Assembly (NCBI GenBank): GCA_963692915.1
Contig: OY843584.1
Span: 448,001-512,000, forward strand
Reading direction: 5' to 3'
DNA: 64,000 nucleotides
Source: Cenarchaeum sp.
Lineage (GTDB): Archaea; Thermoproteota; Nitrososphaeria; Nitrososphaerales; Nitrosopumilaceae
Positions 5,992-55,256 of this stretch are shown here, piece after piece. The first letter of the stretch is position 1. The number at the start of each line of letters is the position of its first letter. The translations under genes and the position numbers were made by a program. Below the pieces are notes generated by a model. That model ran no database searches and had not been told where the DNA came from. It saw only the letters and a list, made by a program, of their open reading frames with translations.

Positions 5992-6087
5992 CGTGGGGCA
6001 GGCGGCGCTCTTTTGTATTAAAGAGTGGCGGCACGCCGCACCAGGCGGCGCGCCCCTTATATCACGCCGCTCGCGACCCCGCGCGCG

Positions 6088-7401
6088 TTGGCCGTCGAGT
6101 CCCACTTTATCCAGACGATCATAGGGGTAGGAATACTCCTCGTGGCGGCCAAGCTCATGGCCGAGCTCTTTATGAGGATCCGCCTGCCCATAGTCCTCGG
6201 CGAGCTCCTCGCTGGCATGATCATAGGCCCATTTGCGTTCGGCGCGTTTCTGGTGTATGATGGTGAGCCGCTCCTGCAGCTCGGCAGCGAGCTGCGTGTC
6301 CTCGGGGAGATCGGCGCCATAGTTATCCTCTTTATGGCCGGAATGGAGATGACGCCCCGCGAGTTTTTGCGTGGCGGCAAAAAGTCGTTCACCGTTGGCA
6401 CAATAGGGGTCGTTCTCCCGTTTTTTGCCGGACTGTGGGTGTTTCAGGCATTCGGCTTTGATGCGCTCCAGTCGATGATGATCGCCACGGCACTCACCGC
6501 AACGAGCATAGCCATCTCGCTTCAGGTTCTCACCGAGTTTGGAAAGATAAAGACGCCCGAGGCGCGCCTCATCATCGGCGCGGCAATCGTTGATGACATT
6601 CTGGCAATTGCCGTCCTCTCGGTGGTCACATCGCTTGGCGCAGATGGGGGAATAGATTCCATCGAGCTGACTGACGTCGCAATAACCATAATGCAGGTTC
6701 TTGGGTTCTTTGCGGCAATGCTCATCTCTGCAGTGTTCATAGTTCCCAAGCTGGTCGCCCCCCGTCTGTGGCACGCAAAGGGCAGTGTCGAGGGCATTGT
6801 GACGGCAATATTCTTTGGCGCCGCAGCGATAGCTGGATCTATTGGACTCTCTCCCATAGTTGGCGCGTTTGCAGTCGGCATGGCGCTATCGACGACCAAG
6901 GTTATAGACAAGGTCGAGCACTTTATCAGCAAGGTGGGACTGATATTTGCGCCGCTGTTCTTTGCCATAATTGGCGCACAGGTTAACTTTATGGAGGTTG
7001 ACGGGACCATCCTTATGCTGAGCGGGGTCATGATCGTCATTGCCATTGTCACAAAGCTCTTTGGATGCGGCCTGCCGTCATGGTACTTTCTCAAGGACAA
7101 GGCGCAGGGAATGCGTGTCGGCATTGCGATGATCTCGCGCGGCGAGGTGGGCCTCATCGTCGCCGGCGTCGGTGTCTCCTCCGGGGTCCTGACGGGGAGC
7201 GTCTACTCGACGATCGTGATAATGGTGGCAGTCACGACAATAATCACGCCAATCTGGCTAAAGCTCGACTATGCCAAGAGGGACGGCGCGAAGCGCAAGG
7301 ACCGGTCAGACAACCCGCACGAGGGAAGGGAGTTTGTCTTTGTGCCGCCCGAGGACACGCCTATCAATGGCGAAGACATAGCGGATGGCCATAAGCCTTA
7401 A
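6088..7401 (+). CDS. Cation:proton antiporter (CPA2/NapA-like)
   Basis: LGELLAGMIIGP, TATSIAIS, AAIVDDIL, MISRGEV; about 12 TM segments; TTG start inferred. Confidence 0.9.
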   Translation: MAVESHFIQTIIGVGILLVAAKLMAELFMRIRLPIVLGELLAGMIIGPFAFGAFLVYDGEPLLQLGSELRVLGEIGAIVILFMAGMEMTPREFLRGGKKSFTVGTIGVVLPFFAGLWVFQAFGFDALQSMMIATALTATSIAISLQVLTEFGKIKTPEARLIIGAAIVDDILAIAVLSVVTSLGADGGIDSIELTDVAITIMQVLGFFAAMLISAVFIVPKLVAPRLWHAKGSVEGIVTAIFFGAAAIAGSIGLSPIVGAFAVGMALSTTKVIDKVEHFISKVGLIFAPLFFAIIGAQVNFMEVDGTILMLSGVMIVIAIVTKLFGCGLPSWYFLKDKAQGMRVGIAMISRGEVGLIVAGVGVSSGVLTGSVYSTIVIMVAVTTIITPIWLKLDYAKRDGAKRKDRSDNPHEGREFVFVPPEDTPINGEDIADGHKP

Positions 7402-7432
7402 ATCATATCGCATGGGGGGCTGCCTCACTGCT

Positions 7433-8047
7433 TTGGCTGAAGACTATGTGACATCGTGCTCCGAGTGCGGCAAGGCCGTGACGCGCGAGACAATGAAGTA
7501 CGATGGCAAGCGCGCCCTCTGCCCCGAGTGCCAGCAGTCAGCATCGGCGGGAAGCTCGGGCACGGACATTGACAAGCAGCTCTCGCTTCTAAGGGTCGAG
7601 CTCATCAAGCTAAAGAACCTCCGCTCCCAGCTAGGCGGCACGTCCAAGAAGACGCCTGCAAAAAAGAGGGCGTCGCCTGCCAGGAAAAAGAGGCGACCGG
7701 CCAGGGCTGGCGCGCGCAAGACATCGGCGACAAGGCGACCAAAGCGCAAGACGACGCGCAAAAAGACCAGGGCGACGACGTCGCGGAGGAGGCCGTCCTC
7801 GCGCACGACTGCGAGGAAAAAGCCGACGACACGAAAGCGCACCGTCACTAGGAAAAGGCCGACTGTCCGCAAGAGAACGACGTCTAGCGGTGCGGCACGG
7901 CGGCGAGTCGCAAAAAGAGCCACTGGGCGGAGCACGACGCGAAAGAGGACGACTGTAAAGAGGGCACGTCCCGTGAGGCGACGTGTCGCAAAGACCACTG
8001 TGCGCAGGAGGGTGAGTCGGCGCGCAACTGCCAAAAGACGGCGCTAG
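7433..8047 (+). CDS. Zn-ribbon + coiled-coil protein with a histone H1/protamine-like basic tail
   Basis: CSEC-x17-CPEC, heptad IDKQLSLLRVELIKLKNLRSQL, then about 130 residues dominated by R/K/T/A/S/P; TTG start inferred. Confidence 0.75.
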   Translation: MAEDYVTSCSECGKAVTRETMKYDGKRALCPECQQSASAGSSGTDIDKQLSLLRVELIKLKNLRSQLGGTSKKTPAKKRASPARKKRRPARAGARKTSATRRPKRKTTRKKTRATTSRRRPSSRTTARKKPTTRKRTVTRKRPTVRKRTTSSGAARRRVAKRATGRSTTRKRTTVKRARPVRRRVAKTTVRRRVSRRATAKRRR

Positions 8048-8101
8048 GGCAGCGTGTGGCACCCATACAGAATTTATGCAGGGTCGGATATCGTGCGCGC
8101 A

Positions 8102-9685
8102 ATGAAACAGGTGCATGGGAACCGGCTTGCCAGCGCATGCGCGGAGATACTTGGGGCACTAGGTGCCGCAGATCATGGTGCGAGCGCCGTGCGCTCGATA
8201 ATACGCGACGCGTGCGCCAGGCACTCGCTTGGGCGCATACCGTCAAACGAGGAGATACTCGCGCATGGCGGTGTCACCCAACGCGCGCGCGCGGCCCTCC
8301 TAAAGCGTCCCATAAAGACGGCCTCTGGAGTCGCAGTCATCGCCGTGATGCCGATGCCATACTCTTGTCCGCACGGCAGGTGCACGTACTGTCCCGGAGG
8401 GCCGGCAAGCGGAACGCCTAACAGCTATACGGGCAGCGAGCCCATAGCGGCCGGCGCGATGGCCTCCTCGTACGATCCCGGCACGCAGGTGCGCTCGGCC
8501 CTTGCGCGCCTTGGGGCTCGCGGCCATGACACCTCAAAGGTGGAGATTGTCATAGTGGGCGGGACGTTCCTCTTTATGCCGCCAGAATACCAGGAGTGGT
8601 TTGTCATGTCCTGCTATGGCGCGCTCAACGGGGGCGCCTCGGCGACGCTTGATGGGGCAAAGTCGCTCAACGAGCGCGCCTCCTCGCGCTGCGTGGGCCT
8701 GACGATCGAGACAAAGCCGGACTATTGCAGGCGTGCCCACGTGGACGCAATGCTCGAATTCGGCGCAACGCGCGTCGAGATAGGCATACAGTGCCTGCGC
8801 GAGCGCGTGTACAGGGCAGTCAACAGGGGACACACGTACGCCGATGTCGTAGAGTCACTGCGCGTGTCGCGTGATGCGGGCTACAAGGTCGTCGCCCACA
8901 TGATGTCCGGCCTGCCGACAATGTCTATTGAGGACGACATAGAGGACTTTGGGCGGCTCTGGGAGGATCCTGACCTGCGGCCAGACATGCTAAAGATCTA
9001 TCCGCTCCTCGTCCTGCCGGGCACACAGATGCACGACGAGTACGCCTCTGGCCTCTATGAGGCGCGAAGCGAGGAGCAGACAGTCGACCTTCTCGCAAGA
9101 ATAAAGGCCAACGTTCCGCCATGGGTGCGCATAATGCGCGTGCAGCGCGAGATACCCGGCAGCGAGATCATCGCCGGCGCGCGTGCCGGAAACCTGCGCC
9201 AGGCCGTCCATGAGAGAATGCGGCGTGATGGCACGAGCTGCGCGTGCATCAGGTGCCGCGAGGCCGGCCTTGCCGGAGTCTCCTCCATTCCCGACGGTGG
9301 CCTGTCATTGCGCCGAATCGACTACGCGTCCTCGCGCGGAAGTGAGGCGTTCCTGTCCATGGAGGATTCGGACTCGCGCACCTATGGCTATCTTCGCCTT
9401 CGCAGGCCCGGTCCGTCAGCGCATAGGCCCGAGGTCGGGGCCGGCTCGTGCATTGTGCGCGAGCTGCACGTGCTCGGCCAGCAGGTTCGCATAGGTGGAC
9501 ACGGCACGGGCATACAGCATTCTGGAATCGGCGCGCGCCTGTTGCGCGAGGCAGAAAGGATCGCACATGATGACTTTGCCGCCTCTACGCTCCTAGTCAT
9601 CAGCGCAGTCGGCACGCGCGGCTATTATGCGCGCCATGGGTACAGGAGGCTTGGCCCATACATGGCAAGGGGGATTGGGCGTTGA
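8102..9685 (+). CDS. elp3: Elp3 tRNA uridine(34) acetyltransferase (radical SAM + GNAT)
   Basis: KTASGVAVIAVM, CPHGRCTYCPGG, GGTF, RVQRE, CIRCRE, VRELHV, QHSGIG, VISAVGTRGYY. Confidence 0.95.
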   Translation: MKQVHGNRLASACAEILGALGAADHGASAVRSIIRDACARHSLGRIPSNEEILAHGGVTQRARAALLKRPIKTASGVAVIAVMPMPYSCPHGRCTYCPGGPASGTPNSYTGSEPIAAGAMASSYDPGTQVRSALARLGARGHDTSKVEIVIVGGTFLFMPPEYQEWFVMSCYGALNGGASATLDGAKSLNERASSRCVGLTIETKPDYCRRAHVDAMLEFGATRVEIGIQCLRERVYRAVNRGHTYADVVESLRVSRDAGYKVVAHMMSGLPTMSIEDDIEDFGRLWEDPDLRPDMLKIYPLLVLPGTQMHDEYASGLYEARSEEQTVDLLARIKANVPPWVRIMRVQREIPGSEIIAGARAGNLRQAVHERMRRDGTSCACIRCREAGLAGVSSIPDGGLSLRRIDYASSRGSEAFLSMEDSDSRTYGYLRLRRPGPSAHRPEVGAGSCIVRELHVLGQQVRIGGHGTGIQHSGIGARLLREAERIAHDDFAASTLLVISAVGTRGYYARHGYRRLGPYMARGIGR

Positions 9686-11256
9686 GCGGCACGATCGGAC
9701 GGGGGACGTGGATAGACAAGCTCGCCTCGGAGCTAGTCGAGCGCGAGGTGTCACTTGGGCGCGACACCGGACTCCTCAGGGTCGAGAGCGGGCTTGGCGC
9801 CTCGGGCGTGCCGCACATCGGCAGCCTCGGCGATGCCGTCAGGGCATACGGCGTGAGCCTTGCGCTTGGAAACCTGGGGTACCGCTCCGAGCTAGTCGCA
9901 TACTCGGATGACCTCGACGGGCTGCGAAAGGTGCCGGCCGGACTCGAAGGGGCATCCCTTGAGGGGCAGATTGGCCGTCCCGTCTCGGACATTGCCGACC
10001 CGCACGGGTGCCACGAGTCATATGGCTCGCACATGAGCAGCCTCCTGCTCGAGGCCCTCGACACGCTAGGCGTGCCACACACGCACATTAGCGCGCAAAA
10101 GGCCTACGCGGAGGGCCGCTTTGCGGCCCAGACCGTCGCAATACTCGAGGCCGCCGACCGGATCGGCGCGCACATTGCAGACGCGACAGGACAGGACAAG
10201 TTTCGCGGAACGCTGCCGTACTGGCCGGTGTGTGACTCGTGCGGTCGGCTCTACACGGCAGTCGCGCGTGAGCATCTTGGCGCCGGCAGGATCAGCTATG
10301 AGTGCGTTGACGCCGAGATTGGCCATGCGCTGGTGCGCGGGTGCGGCCATGCCGGCGAGACTGACGCGACACGCGGACGTGGCAAGCTCGCCTGGAAGGT
10401 CGAGTTTGCCGCACGATGGACAGCGCTTGACGTGAGGTTTGAGGCGTATGGCAAGGACATCATGGACTCTGTGATGGTCAATGACTGGGTCTCTGAGAAC
10501 GTGCTGTCGCGCGCGCCGCCACACCACGTGAAATACGAGATGTTCCTTGACCGCTCAGGCGGCAAGATATCAAAGTCTTCGGGCAACGTCTTTACGCCCC
10601 AGGCGTGGCTGCGCTATGGCACACCACAGTCTCTCCTCCTCCTGCTCTTCAAGAGGATAAAGGGGGCGCGTCGCGTGGGCGTGGAGGACATACCGCAACT
10701 TATGGACGAGCTTGCGGGCCTAGAGCGCACCTATTTTGGAATTGTCGCCGAACCCAACGCCGAGCGCCTCGAGCGCCTCAGGGGACTCTACGAGTACGCG
10801 CACCTCCTAGACCCGCCTGATGCGCCGCAGGAACGCGCGCCATACTCGCTCCTCGTCGAGCTTGCGCGCGTGTTTCGGGACGACAGGGCGAATCTTGTCG
10901 CCAAAAAGCTCGTCGAGTACGGCACGATCAAGGAACCCGGTGATGGGCTAGCAGGGGCAATAGAGCTTGCCGGCAGGTACGCAGATGACTTTGGGGGTCA
11001 CGGGGAGGCTGACATGAAGGTTGAGGATGATGCCATGCGCGCAGCGCTATCCGAGCTGGCCGACGCCCTTGACGCGCAGGCCGACGCGCAGGATGCCGTG
11101 CGTGAGGCCTCGCGGCGCCACGGCGTGCAGCCGCGCGAGATGTTTCGCACAATCTACCTTATCGTCATAGGGGCACCGTCTGGCCCGAGGCTTGGCAAGT
11201 TTGTCCGTGACATTGGCGCAGCAAAGGTGGCCTCCATGATAAGGGGGAGCCTCTGA
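9682..11256 (+). CDS. lysS: Lysine--tRNA ligase, class I
   Basis: SGVPHIGS, GKLAWKVEFAARW, FEAYGKD, KISKSSGN, GPRLG. Confidence 0.95.
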   Translation: MSGTIGRGTWIDKLASELVEREVSLGRDTGLLRVESGLGASGVPHIGSLGDAVRAYGVSLALGNLGYRSELVAYSDDLDGLRKVPAGLEGASLEGQIGRPVSDIADPHGCHESYGSHMSSLLLEALDTLGVPHTHISAQKAYAEGRFAAQTVAILEAADRIGAHIADATGQDKFRGTLPYWPVCDSCGRLYTAVAREHLGAGRISYECVDAEIGHALVRGCGHAGETDATRGRGKLAWKVEFAARWTALDVRFEAYGKDIMDSVMVNDWVSENVLSRAPPHHVKYEMFLDRSGGKISKSSGNVFTPQAWLRYGTPQSLLLLLFKRIKGARRVGVEDIPQLMDELAGLERTYFGIVAEPNAERLERLRGLYEYAHLLDPPDAPQERAPYSLLVELARVFRDDRANLVAKKLVEYGTIKEPGDGLAGAIELAGRYADDFGGHGEADMKVEDDAMRAALSELADALDAQADAQDAVREASRRHGVQPREMFRTIYLIVIGAPSGPRLGKFVRDIGAAKVASMIRGSL

Positions 11257-52996: not shown

Positions 52997-53058
52997 CTCT
53001 AAGATCAAGTATTTTTGACCGGACCCTTATGATATAGGGTGTATTGACCCCCCGTCAC

Positions 53059-54315
53059 TTGCAGGAGGTAGGACACGTTACACATGTCGCAAAAAGCGGA
53101 AGGGTCATCGTTGAGCTGGCAGCCTCGGTCAGGGACGGGACGGTTCTGTGCGACAGCCTGGGGACTCGCCTCGCGCGCGTGATGGAGACGATAGGCCCGG
53201 TCTCGCGTCCATTCGCCTCGGCTAGCCCGATAACCAACAACATGTCGCCGCATGTCGGCAAGGGGATATTTGCGATTGACGAGGAGCGCGCCGCAACACG
53301 GTACGAGAGCCGCACGCAGACAAATGATGCCGATGACAATGGTGGCGAGCCCCAGACAGAACGTTCCGAGCACACCTCGAGCACGTCACGCGAGGAGCGC
53401 ACACCTGCACGGCGTGAAGGTGGCGGATCGCGCTCGCGTGGCCAGGGCAGGTACTCTGAGCGTAGGGGACCGGCACGGCGCGACTCTTCCTCAAAGTCTG
53501 GACGCAGCGACGGCCGGCGCACTCCACGGCGCGACGGCGGTTCAGGCTCGCGTGGCCAGGGCAGGTACTCTGGGCGCGGCGGTCCGGCGCGGCGCGACTC
53601 CTACTCAAAGTCCGGCAGCGACGGCGGTTCAGGCTCGCGTGGCCAGGGCAGGTACTCTGGGCGCGGCGGTCCGGCGCGGCGCGACTCCTACTCAAAGTCC
53701 GGCAGCGACGGCGGTTCAGGCTCGCGTGGCCAGGGCAGGTACTCTGGGCGCGGCGGTCCGGCGCGGCGCGACTCCTACTCAAAGTCCGGCAGCGACGGCG
53801 GTTCAGGCTCGCGTGGCCAGGGCAGGTACTCTGGGCGCGGCGGTCCGGCGCGGCGCGACTCCTACTCAAAGTCCGGCAGCGACGGCGGCCAGGGCAGGTA
53901 CTCTGATCGCAGGGGTCCGGCGCGGCGCGACTCCTACTCAAAGTCCGGCAGCGACGGCGGTTCGGGCTCGCGTGGCCAGGGCAGGTACTCTGATCGCAGG
54001 GGTCCGGCGCGGCGCGACTCCTACTCAAAGTCCGGCAGCGACGGCGGTTCGGGCTCGCGTGGCCAGGGCAGGTACTCTGATCGCAGGGGTCCGGCGCGGC
54101 GTGACAGCTATTCGTCATCATCTCGCACGGGACCTCGCGGTGACGGCAGGCGCGCACCACCACGGCGCGGTCCGGCTCGACGTGACACAGGTGCGAGGAC
54201 GGCGCGCGAGGAGGGCAGTCGTGGTGCACCGCGCAACAATGTCACTTTTAGATCACGTGGATTGGACAGCAGGGGCACCGGCCGCCGCGACAGGAGCGGG
54301 AGGCGACGCGAATGA
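53059..54315 (+). CDS. gar1: H/ACA RNP protein Gar1/Naf1 with a long RG/RS-rich repeat tail
   Basis: VGHVTHVAKSGRVIV and ARVMETIGPVSRPF Gar1 core; located directly upstream of tfb. Confidence 0.85.
   Translation: MQEVGHVTHVAKSGRVIVELAASVRDGTVLCDSLGTRLARVMETIGPVSRPFASASPITNNMSPHVGKGIFAIDEERAATRYESRTQTNDADDNGGEPQTERSEHTSSTSREERTPARREGGGSRSRGQGRYSERRGPARRDSSSKSGRSDGRRTPRRDGGSGSRGQGRYSGRGGPARRDSYSKSGSDGGSGSRGQGRYSGRGGPARRDSYSKSGSDGGSGSRGQGRYSGRGGPARRDSYSKSGSDGGSGSRGQGRYSGRGGPARRDSYSKSGSDGGQGRYSDRRGPARRDSYSKSGSDGGSGSRGQGRYSDRRGPARRDSYSKSGSDGGSGSRGQGRYSDRRGPARRDSYSSSSRTGPRGDGRRAPPRRGPARRDTGARTAREEGSRGAPRNNVTFRSRGLDSRGTGRRDRSGRRRE
53416..54114 (+). repeat. In-frame tandem repeat, 87-bp unit (29 aa), about 8 copies
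   Basis: Units start at 53533, 53620, 53707, 53794, 53881 (72-bp deleted variant), 53953 and 54040, with a degenerate copy at 53416. Confidence 0.97.
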
Positions 54316-55256
54316 GCCGACTCGAGATTCCGACATGCGCCGAGTGCAGCAGCACGTCACTCATTGACGACCTCGAGCGCGGCGAGACGGTCTGCCAGTC
54401 ATGTGGGATTGTCGCAGCAGACCAGATGGTTGACCATGGTCCAGAAACCGCACGTACGGGATATGAGGACAAGATGAACCTCGCGCGCGCGTCAGGAACG
54501 ATGACATACTCGCAGCATGACCTTGGGTTGTCCACGACCATAGCGACCACGTCGAGGGACTTTAGCGGCAAGTCGATAGGCTCTGACACGGCCTCGACGA
54601 TGAGGCGCCTTGACAAGTGGCAGTCGCGCGTGCGCGTGACGAGCAACACCGAGAGGCGCCTGGTCGGCATGCTCTCAAAGCTCGGCGACGTGTGCCGTAG
54701 CATGGACCTGCCTAACAACGTCCTGGAGACGGCCTCGATGATATACCGTGACCTTGACGGCAAGGCAGTCAAGGGGCGCCACATCGACAGCATGGCCGTC
54801 GCAACAGTCTACATGGCATGCCAGCGGTGTGAGATCGTCAGGTCACTTGAGGACATCTGCCGCAGCTTTTGCGACCCGCGCGAGATCCGCTCAAAGACAA
54901 AGCTCGCCGCAAAGTACTATCGTGACATGCGCCTCAGCATGGAGACGACACCGACCATATCAGTCACGATGGATCGGCGAATATCGCAGATAGCCAACAT
55001 CACGAGGACAGACCCGCGCGTTGAGCGCCTCGCGCTCAAGATAGCAGACAAGACGAGCAATGGCGGGTTTGCCGGCGGCAAGACGCCGCAGGGAATAGCT
55101 GCGGCGTACCTTTATGTCGCCTCGATCCTGCGGGGCCAGAGTGTCCTGCAGCGTGACATCTCGTCTGTCGCACAGGTCACAGAAGTGACGATTCGCAGCC
55201 GCTGCAAGGATCTCCTGGCAAGCTATCGTCTCGTCGTAAGGCTTTCGCCTGCATGA
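54312..55256 (+). CDS. tfb: Transcription initiation factor IIB
   Basis: CAEC...GETVCQSCG Zn ribbon, DHGPE, HDLGLST, two cyclin repeats, GKTPQGIAAA, VTEVTIR. Confidence 0.95.
   Translation: MSRLEIPTCAECSSTSLIDDLERGETVCQSCGIVAADQMVDHGPETARTGYEDKMNLARASGTMTYSQHDLGLSTTIATTSRDFSGKSIGSDTASTMRRLDKWQSRVRVTSNTERRLVGMLSKLGDVCRSMDLPNNVLETASMIYRDLDGKAVKGRHIDSMAVATVYMACQRCEIVRSLEDICRSFCDPREIRSKTKLAAKYYRDMRLSMETTPTISVTMDRRISQIANITRTDPRVERLALKIADKTSNGGFAGGKTPQGIAAAYLYVASILRGQSVLQRDISSVAQVTEVTIRSRCKDLLASYRLVVRLSPA

Follow-up and report, generated by a model that had tools for sequence, protein, structure and literature searches.

A half-LIM-like zinc finger followed by a polycationic tail in a putative nucleic-acid-binding protein family of ammonia-oxidising archaea

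The gene at positions 7433..8047 (plus strand) of the 64,000-nucleotide window, the whole stretch of Cenarchaeum sp. DNA analysed here, encodes a 204-residue protein that consists of a single zinc-finger domain, a predicted amphipathic helix and a long polycationic tail. Comparison with related genomes indicates that it is a genuine, conserved and lineage-restricted gene of marine and sponge-associated ammonia-oxidising archaea that is apparently undescribed; a search of open-access papers and preprints found no paper describing such a zinc-finger/polybasic-tail family. Its domain arrangement appears to be a new architecture of a known kind, namely the small protein with a polycationic nucleic-acid-binding tail. 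On balance, we propose that the gene product is probably a small architectural protein that binds nucleic acids, most likely DNA, in a non-specific and charge-driven manner, a reading that draws on sequence features and on analogy with known systems.

The six-frame listing and translation revealed an open frame at 7385..8047 on the plus strand, counted from its first ATG. In related genomes, the N-termini of the homologues read M/V-AE(D/E)YVTSC with TTG, ATG or GTG as the start codon, so the TTG at 7433 is the likeliest start of the 204-residue frame, which ends with a TAG stop codon at 8045-8047. The protein thus delimited has a calculated pI of ~12 and a mass of 23 kDa. The gene is present in all four other genomes of the genus, at 95, 84, 85 and 55% identity, and the frame is conserved across genera down to 23-37% identity with invariant Cys ligands. 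Compared to the nearest genome, which shares 95% identity over the N-terminal 87 residues, the codons of the N-domain have 14 synonymous and 3 non-synonymous differences, and those of the tail 10 synonymous and 8 non-synonymous differences. This pattern indicates that the N-domain is under purifying selection. Two antisense frames across the 7433..8047 stretch are likewise open, owing to the purine-rich codons of the gene. Such open antisense frames are what might be seen if the frame were open by chance in GC-rich DNA and held no functional gene. However, the conservation of the frame across genera, the excess of synonymous over non-synonymous changes and the genomic position kept among relatives all argue against a chance frame, an explanation that we rejected and whose probability we place close to nil.

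The zinc-finger domain (residues 1-41, 7433..7555, plus strand) has the putative metal ligands C9, C12, C30 and C33, which are arranged in two CxxC pairs at residues 9-12 and 30-33. Together with the helix that AlphaFold2 places at residues 43-67, this arrangement bears out the order of CxxC pairs and helix given in the preliminary description. Among 40 sequences, C9, C12 and C33 are invariant, and the third ligand is Cys in the window's genus only and His in all other genera. Outside the genus, this ligand sits in a G-x-x-F/Y-H-x-x-C-F/Y context, the signature of the first zinc module of the LIM domain. The AlphaFold2 model of 80 residues (40-row alignment, pLDDT 71, pTM 0.31) shows short β-hairpins and a helix at residues 31-40. 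No structure in the PDB matched at E<=0.001 in a similarity search using Foldseek; the top rows are LIM domains, which are weak matches at E 0.5-1 over ~33 aligned residues for a model of pLDDT 71. A search of 48,161 chains using VIA-align gave nothing at Z>=5, with weak rows headed by the Rabex-5, FYVE and GATA fingers at Z of at most 4.4; the best row is the zinc finger plus helix of Rabex-5, with a Z of 4.4 and an rmsd of 2.0 over 57 residues. The ESM Atlas search gave a best feature score of 0.76, too low to be informative.

The head had earlier been taken for a zinc ribbon, a label that is not supported, as the zinc-ribbon models remain below their cut-offs for the window's protein: Zn_ribbon_8 (PF09723) with 16.2 against 34.4 bits, FmdB (TIGR02605) with 14.7 against 31.3 bits and RpoP (NF001608) with 15.9 against 84 bits. 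Judged from sequence and model, the finger resembles a single half-LIM-like treble clef, of C2HC type outside the genus, which is a better description than zinc ribbon. It matches the first zinc module of the LIM domain (PF00412) in its C-x2-C-x16-17-H-x2-C spacing with the G-x-x-F/Y-H-x-x-C-F signature. Compared to the two consecutive modules of LIM (C2HC plus C2C-H/C/D), however, it has only one zinc module, and the relatives align to positions 1-28 of the LIM profile at 17.4-17.8 bits, below the cut-off of 22.9. In the window's protein, moreover, Cys replaces His, and Pfam gave no LIM match at E<=0.1 for this protein.

The finger is followed by an amphipathic helix of ~25 residues (residues 43-67, 7559..7633, plus strand), which AlphaFold2 predicts with a pLDDT of ~91 for residues 51-60. 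It carries a near-invariant (L/I)(K/R)N(L) motif, which reads LKNL at residues 60-63. N62 and L63 are invariant in the alignment of 11 N-domain sequences; in the larger set of 40 sequences, N62 is conserved in at least 90%. A two-copy complex prediction of N-domain residues 1-74, run on a 40-row alignment without control runs, gave a score of 0.03 against a mark of 0.42, which weighs neither for nor against the leucine-zipper oligomerisation put forward in the preliminary description.

The rest of the protein is a polycationic low-complexity tail, delimited by composition (residues 70-204, 7640..8044, plus strand), which ends in KRRR. Its 135 residues comprise R42 T26 K21 A17 S10 P8 V8 G3, amounting to 47% K+R with no D/E and no F/W/Y, that is, ~63 positive and no negative charges; the preliminary description of a basic tail of about 130 residues free of acidic and aromatic residues was therefore accurate. 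Only two runs of at least 80 residues in the six frames of the window lack D, E, F, W, Y and stop, one of which is the tail and the other an off-frame reading of an RG-repeat gene. Tandem Repeats Finder applied to 7400-8100 detected only a trivial 8-nt array with a score of 30, which indicates that the window's tail, unlike the tails of several relatives, is not a recent DNA repeat. The tail contains the motifs TPAK and SPAR, which had been put forward as an H1-type signal. The motifs are indeed there, but these two [ST]-P-x-[KR] sites compare with ~1 expected by chance (8 Pro x 0.27 S/T x 0.47 K/R), a frequency at chance level for this composition, and the strict S/T-P-K/R-K/R (SPKK) motif is absent from the window's tail.

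The tails of the relatives have 43-165 residues, often consist of tandem repeats, as in genome G011 with seven 21-residue units, and are unalignable between genera. Despite this, 14 tails without AT hooks, 43-165 residues long, all have a K+R fraction of 0.43-0.56 and next to no acidic residues. Tails are present in 44 of the 52 family representatives listed; their median K+R is 0.525, and 27 of the 44 end in RR(R). In addition, R/(K+R) rises with the local GC content (Spearman 0.71, n=16, related genomes). The narrow K+R range of tails that are otherwise unalignable indicates selection for charge rather than for sequence. Selection on the tail thus acts on charge and composition, leaving the sequence free to drift, and the tail evolves via rapid repeat turnover in which the charge density and the C-terminal RRR are kept. 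The family is thereby an example of a disordered region kept for its charge alone, the sequence, length and Lys/Arg balance of which drift with the composition of the genome.

The preliminary description had suggested a search with the N-terminal part to define the family. A profile of 11 N-domains, searched against 1.84 billion representative proteins, yielded 85 matches with E<=1e-3, of which 48 had E<=1e-10. Of the 85, ~54 are single-stretch proteins, 32-231 residues long and of the same build, so that homologues are at hand and the family could be defined; the weaker, multi-stretch matches are LIM-domain, archaeal DUF2175 (PF09943), Prok-RING and FLZ proteins. No model in Pfam or NCBIfam reaches its cut-off, the best being zinc-finger models at 14-17 bits. 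Among proteins with lengths of 121-385 residues, a word-index homology search with residues 10-90 yielded no hit at E<=0.01; this reflects a lack of sensitivity, as the family emerged from the subsequent exhaustive profile search. The single-protein scan of the collection gave 3 loci, all from Cenarchaeum or Thaumarchaeota MAGs.

In the window's own archaeal family, that of the ammonia-oxidising archaea, the profile matches 53 of 151 genomes and 14 of 27 genera, a tally that includes the genome G109, flagged as unpublished, and that, like all distribution counts here, samples related genomes. The other families of the order (90 genomes from 19 families) gave one marginal match, at E 7e-4 within a 797-residue frame. 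Among the genomes searched, the zinc-finger/tail family was thus found only in the window's own archaeal family. There are also 12 finger-only matches of 61-69 residues, one of them from the unpublished-flagged G109, which belong to the genera g42 and g9 and lie on contigs other than that of elp3. They adjoin shikimate-pathway-like genes in three of the four fetched loci, those with assessable flanks. Their interpretation as remnants of the zinc-finger/tail gene was rejected, and we treat them as a separate small-finger subfamily.

Further variants were found in the same genomic slot, directly upstream of the tRNA-modification gene elp3. In the genera g4, g13, g38 and g40, this slot holds a shorter finger-less protein, in which a helix that closes with L-K-(N/D/E)-(L/F/M) is combined with a tail of K/R repeats whose last residues are RR(R). 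The g40 form and the finger-bearing members have in common an acidic N-terminal extension, E-L-L-x-E-Y-E-K-x-Y-L-Q-R-L (16 of 19 residues identical, E 2e-7), which shows that at least the g40 finger-less form is homologous and that the finger is dispensable. The finger is therefore an optional add-on, given that same-slot relatives keep only the helix and the tail. In both g18 genomes examined, the slot is occupied by a protein in which 5 or 10 genuine AT hooks (PF02178, 51.6 and 58.2 bits, cut-off 17.4) follow a short helix. The AT hook is a DNA minor-groove motif. Profile-profile comparison aligned the heads of the finger-less and AT-hook proteins in register with the family helix, with a probability of 4.8% and an E of 0.008 over an alignment too short to demonstrate homology. 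What the AT-hook proteins of g18 have in common with the family is their position and layout.

Similar tails are also encoded elsewhere in the genome. A scan of the whole genome (1.64 Mb, GC 59.4%) for K/R-rich windows revealed four further real-looking ORFs. The first encodes a protein of 140 residues that is polybasic throughout. In the product of the second, an N-terminal helix and an H1-like stretch rich in K/A/P precede a C-terminus that resembles Rpc34/TFE-beta (19.8 bits, which is below the cut-off). The third encodes a protein with a ParB_N domain (45.1 bits against a cut-off of 26.3), whose R/T/A/K tail is N-terminal, and the fourth a long coiled coil to which a basic repeat tail is attached. 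Two of the four carry recognisable DNA-related domains.

At the locus itself, a TATA-box-like TTAAAT (7398..7403, plus strand) lies 29-35 nt upstream of the start codon, and AAGCCTTAAAT, which contains it, is kept at a spacing of 26-29 nt from the start codon in all five genomes of the genus. It looks like an archaeal TATA box and is a putative promoter of the gene's own, from which a nearly leaderless mRNA would be produced. TTAAAT shares nucleotides with the stop codon of the Na+/H+ exchanger gene that lies upstream (6025..7401, plus strand; Pfam Na_H_Exchanger, 194 bits), and the final codons of that gene may account for part of the conservation of the element. Among the sequencing data sets listed for positions 7000-8400, six from 3 studies are of DNA type and none is of RNA. 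The downstream neighbour elp3 (8102..9685, plus strand) encodes a radical SAM and GNAT tRNA-modification enzyme (Pfam ELP3_N, Radical_SAM, Radical_SAM_C and Acetyltransf). The TATA-like AATTTAT (8071-8077, plus strand), 28 nt before the elp3 ATG, is a possible elp3 promoter; within the genus, two of the five genomes have this element, a third has a similar one and the other two have none. The next gene, lysS (9682..11256, plus strand; Pfam tRNA-synt_1f, 326 bits), encodes a class I lysyl-tRNA synthetase and overlaps the elp3 stop codon by 4 nt.

The adjacency to elp3, which had initially been regarded as perhaps coincidental, proved to be no one-off. Of 41 full-length profile matches, 35 share contig and strand with elp3, and all 35 lie directly upstream of it; among the remaining six, five are on other contigs of fragmented assemblies and one has no listed elp3 coordinates. 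The distance from the end of the N-domain match to elp3 is 165-617 nt, which is the room that the tail needs. The pairing holds in G011, where the opposite neighbour differs. Throughout the archaeal family, elp3 is present in 148 of 151 genomes, a tally that likewise includes genomes flagged as unpublished, namely G094, G108 and G109; none of the conclusions drawn here depends on these genomes. No helix-plus-tail ORF was found upstream of elp3 in the sampled genomes of g5, g6, g7, g9, g10, g11, g14, g16, g17 and g41, nor in G045 of g42, the two sampled genomes of g2 and one genome of g13. Outside the archaeal family, 24 elp3 loci representing 11 further families were inspected, none of which has a polybasic ORF upstream. 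Inherited gene order in these very collinear genomes would explain the linkage to elp3 at least as well as a shared function.

Nucleic-acid binding would be the most economical function of this protein, with DNA as the most likely substrate. The indirect evidence is that AT-hook proteins fill the same slot in g18 and that the genome carries similar tails on ParB_N and Rpc34/TFE-beta-like proteins. In the sense of excerpts from PMC7613761, a nucleoid-associated protein is small, basic, encoded as a single-gene unit, highly abundant and enriched in the nucleoid; of these traits, the present protein shows small size, basic charge and a promoter-like element of its own. The TTAAAT before the start codon in all five genomes is in keeping with transcription from a separate promoter, which these excerpts count among the characteristics of known nucleoid proteins. 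Several observations run counter to the DNA reading. The gene is patchy, with the finger-bearing form in 14 of 27 genera, a distribution that argues against an essential and universal chromatin role. The window's tail has neither an AT hook nor a strict SPKK motif, the likeness of the g18 AT-hook proteins is one of slot and layout, and the strict adjacency to elp3 and lysS could point to tRNA. Moreover, RNA is as good a ligand for polybasic tails as DNA is. The narrower claim that the family provides a major chromatin protein of ammonia-oxidising archaea seems doubtful to us.

An alternative in which tRNA is the ligand starts from the neighbouring genes: the tail might hold tRNA for Elp3, which modifies the wobble uridine, and/or for the class I LysRS, much as the lysine-rich extensions appended to eukaryotic synthetases bind tRNA. 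The immediate, same-strand position upstream of elp3 in all 35 same-contig matches, its persistence in G011 beside a different gene on the other side, and the 4-nt overlap of elp3 and lysS would all be in keeping with such a helper, as would the two genomes of the genus in which no TATA-like element precedes elp3 and co-transcription is possible. If the link to elp3 were functional, the protein would be the first trans-acting tRNA-holding partner for an archaeal Elp3. However, elp3 is near-universal in the archaeal family while the polybasic gene is missing from the slot in many sampled genera, and its absence from all 24 loci elsewhere makes the link no older than the shared gene order of the family, within which related genomes are non-independent observations. 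The gene also has its own promoter-like element, as does elp3 in the window, and the AT hooks and the fusions to ParB_N and TFE-beta-like domains point to DNA. We consider a tRNA helper unlikely.

A broader role in RNA metabolism, as an rRNA chaperone, a ribosome-bound factor or a lineage-specific zinc-finger ribosomal protein, is likewise rather improbable, though several archaeal and eukaryotic ribosomal proteins are built as a small zinc finger with a basic extension, and the weak rows of the fold search include ribosomal zinc-finger proteins, all below Z 5. No ribosomal protein model in Pfam or NCBIfam matched, the patchy distribution and the very fast turnover of the tail are unlike ribosomal proteins, and the finger-less form is tolerated. 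That selection acts on composition only, and that the gene is dispensable in many genera, would also suit a protein with polyphosphate, acidic membrane lipids or some other polyanion or surface as its ligand, or one that buffers charge with no specific target. The conserved folded head with its invariant motif argues instead for a specific partner, and direct reading of the sequence gave no membrane segment or signal peptide, so we give little credence to this possibility. Even less credible is a host-directed "eukaryote-like" effector that would combine a LIM-like finger with an NLS-like tail. It derives from the sponge-symbiont lifestyle of the window's genus and from LIM being a mainly eukaryotic domain, yet the family occurs in 14 genera, beyond the symbiont genus and mostly with small low-GC genomes, and has no secretion signal, for which reasons the effector reading was rejected.

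We return to the preferred reading, a charge-driven architectural binder of nucleic acids and most likely of DNA. In such a protein, the disordered tail would bind the phosphate backbone non-specifically and neutralise its charge, by which DNA would be coated or condensed in the manner of the tails of H1, Hc1/Hc2 and HupB/MDP1. The folded head would provide a protein contact, either for self-association or for docking of a partner, or else a weak second contact to the nucleic acid. In a more speculative picture, which we hold to be improbable as a whole but worth stating, marine and symbiotic ammonia-oxidising archaea, which make almost no histone in the one species measured, would package or silence their DNA by means of a modular set of proteins that join a short helix to a polycation. 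The zinc-finger/tail family would form the core of this set, with zinc-finger heads as an option, AT-hook tails in one genus, and the tail module grafted onto ParB-like and TFE-beta-like proteins. Such proteins would have been missed by the shotgun proteomics with which archaeal chromatin proteins were sought, presumably because trypsin cuts their tails very small.

Ammonia-oxidising archaea are among the most abundant microbes of the ocean. According to excerpts from PMC7613761, histones make up <0.06% of the proteome of Nitrosopumilus maritimus, and new candidates were assigned with only "very low" confidence. Histones are scarce in the one species measured there, and no convincing alternative emerged from its proteome; the polycation family is a concrete and testable candidate for a part in the DNA organisation of these archaea.

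Compared to known DNA-compacting proteins, the tail resembles those of linker histone H1 and chlamydial Hc1/Hc2 in being polybasic, acid-free and of low complexity, but is Arg/Thr-rich, whereas theirs are Lys/Ala/Pro-rich. In contrast to the linker histones H1/H5, there is no winged-helix globular domain, as the model of the head shows a zinc finger and a helix. For the window's protein, PF00538 (H1/H5) gave no match at E<=0.1, PF07382 (HC2) scored 13.2 bits against a cut-off of 40, and neither NF038052 nor NF038053 matched at E<=1; a finger-less relative reaches 17.2 against 80. Membership in the H1 or Hc1/Hc2 families was thus rejected, for want of a winged helix and on the HC2 score. Accordingly, of the preliminary description of an H1/protamine-like protein, the metal-finger head, the helix and the polycationic tail stand, but the kinship with H1 or Hc1/Hc2 does not.

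Likenesses in overall layout extend to further systems. The AT-hook proteins of HMGA type (PF02178) also join a short head to repeated basic DNA-binding units, as in the g18 slot, but the window's tail has no GRP core (R-G-R-P) and no PF02178 match. Similarly, the bridging proteins H-NS, Lsr2, MvaT and Rok, as portrayed in excerpts from PMC6936261, join a helical part at the N-terminus to a basic C-terminal part that binds nucleic acids. They differ in that neither the sequence nor the fold gives a significant match, the Lsr2 dimerisation domain reaching a Z of 3.7, which is within noise. Among archaeal proteins, WP_019177984.1 of Methanomassiliicoccus luminyensis is likewise a small, basic, lineage-specific candidate nucleoid protein, in this case rich in lysine, compared here by its description in excerpts from PMC7613761 (74 residues, pI 9.6, 1.34% of the proteome); the present tail is far more extreme. 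Mycobacterial HupB/MDP1 differs in its head, which has the HU fold instead of a single zinc finger plus helix; the present protein also has an archaeal host and is known here from its sequence. Nevertheless, as described in excerpts from PMC5676037, PMC10810275 and PMC5974015, HupB/MDP1 likewise consists of a small folded head and a long K/R/A/T/P-rich disordered tail, and the same excerpts call the tail of HupB indispensable and the polycationic disordered region of MDP1 essential for chromosome compaction.

The end of elp3, including its stop codon, shares 4 nt with the start of the class I lysS gene (window 9682..9685), and because of this overlap the two genes are probably translated from one shared transcript. 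Upstream of elp3, three genomes of the neighbouring family f4 (loci L047, L048 and L051) possess a conserved ORF of ~90 codons, which is not polybasic and ends in ...KAWKGYKIAKVQGDR.KM.EYA.KIRKL.GELGV..ASFP.LSLN.

Stand-alone C2HC fingers, encoded by ORFs of 61-68 codons, were found in g42 and g9, two genera of the window's own archaeal family (loci L040-L043). They are related to the finger of the family of the 204-aa protein (E ~1e-8) and adjoin genes resembling archaeal shikimate-pathway enzymes, with no elp3 nearby. In several fragmented assemblies (G024, G064, G097, G106 and G121), the contig ends at or beside the tail-coding region of the finger and polybasic-tail family. The tail-coding repeats probably hinder assembly, and the gene is therefore likely under-counted in metagenome-assembled genomes.

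Further basic segments are encoded in the window's own genome (G000), outside the window. A 140-aa ORF (863003..863422, + strand; L071:1504-1923) is K/R-rich over its full length (29 Lys and 44 Arg), with RKTT repeats and a C-terminal RRRRRA, and is thus protamine-like, being polybasic throughout; it has no Pfam match. A DRG/Obg-type GTPase-like gene lies upstream of it. The 274-aa protein at 1173599..1174420 (+ strand; L072:1100-1921) consists of an N-terminal helix, an H1-like K/A/P-rich stretch and an Rpc34/TFE-beta-like C-terminus that contains CxxCx5Cx11C, and matches PF05158 at 19.8 bits, below the cut-off. The ParB_N-domain protein (45.1 bits) at 349528..350580 (+ strand; L073:1029-2081) bears its R/T/A/K polybasic tail of ~70 residues at the N-terminus. 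In addition, a coiled-coil-like protein of 348 aa (750466..751509, - strand; L074:967-2010), also without a Pfam match, ends in a C-terminal basic repeat tail of the ARPRKAARRPAKRAK type, and shares the layout of the 204-aa protein on a larger scale.

Within the window, a 209-residue acid-free run at 53504 is an off-frame reading of a 423-aa ORF (53044..54315, + strand), directly upstream of a TFB-like gene (54312..55256). The N-terminus of this ORF is Gar1-like (PF04410, 18.4 bits against a cut-off of 29.3). After it, a Gly/Arg/Ser-rich unit of 28-30 residues recurs about nine times, in a region that resembles the GAR domains of eukaryotic Gar1.
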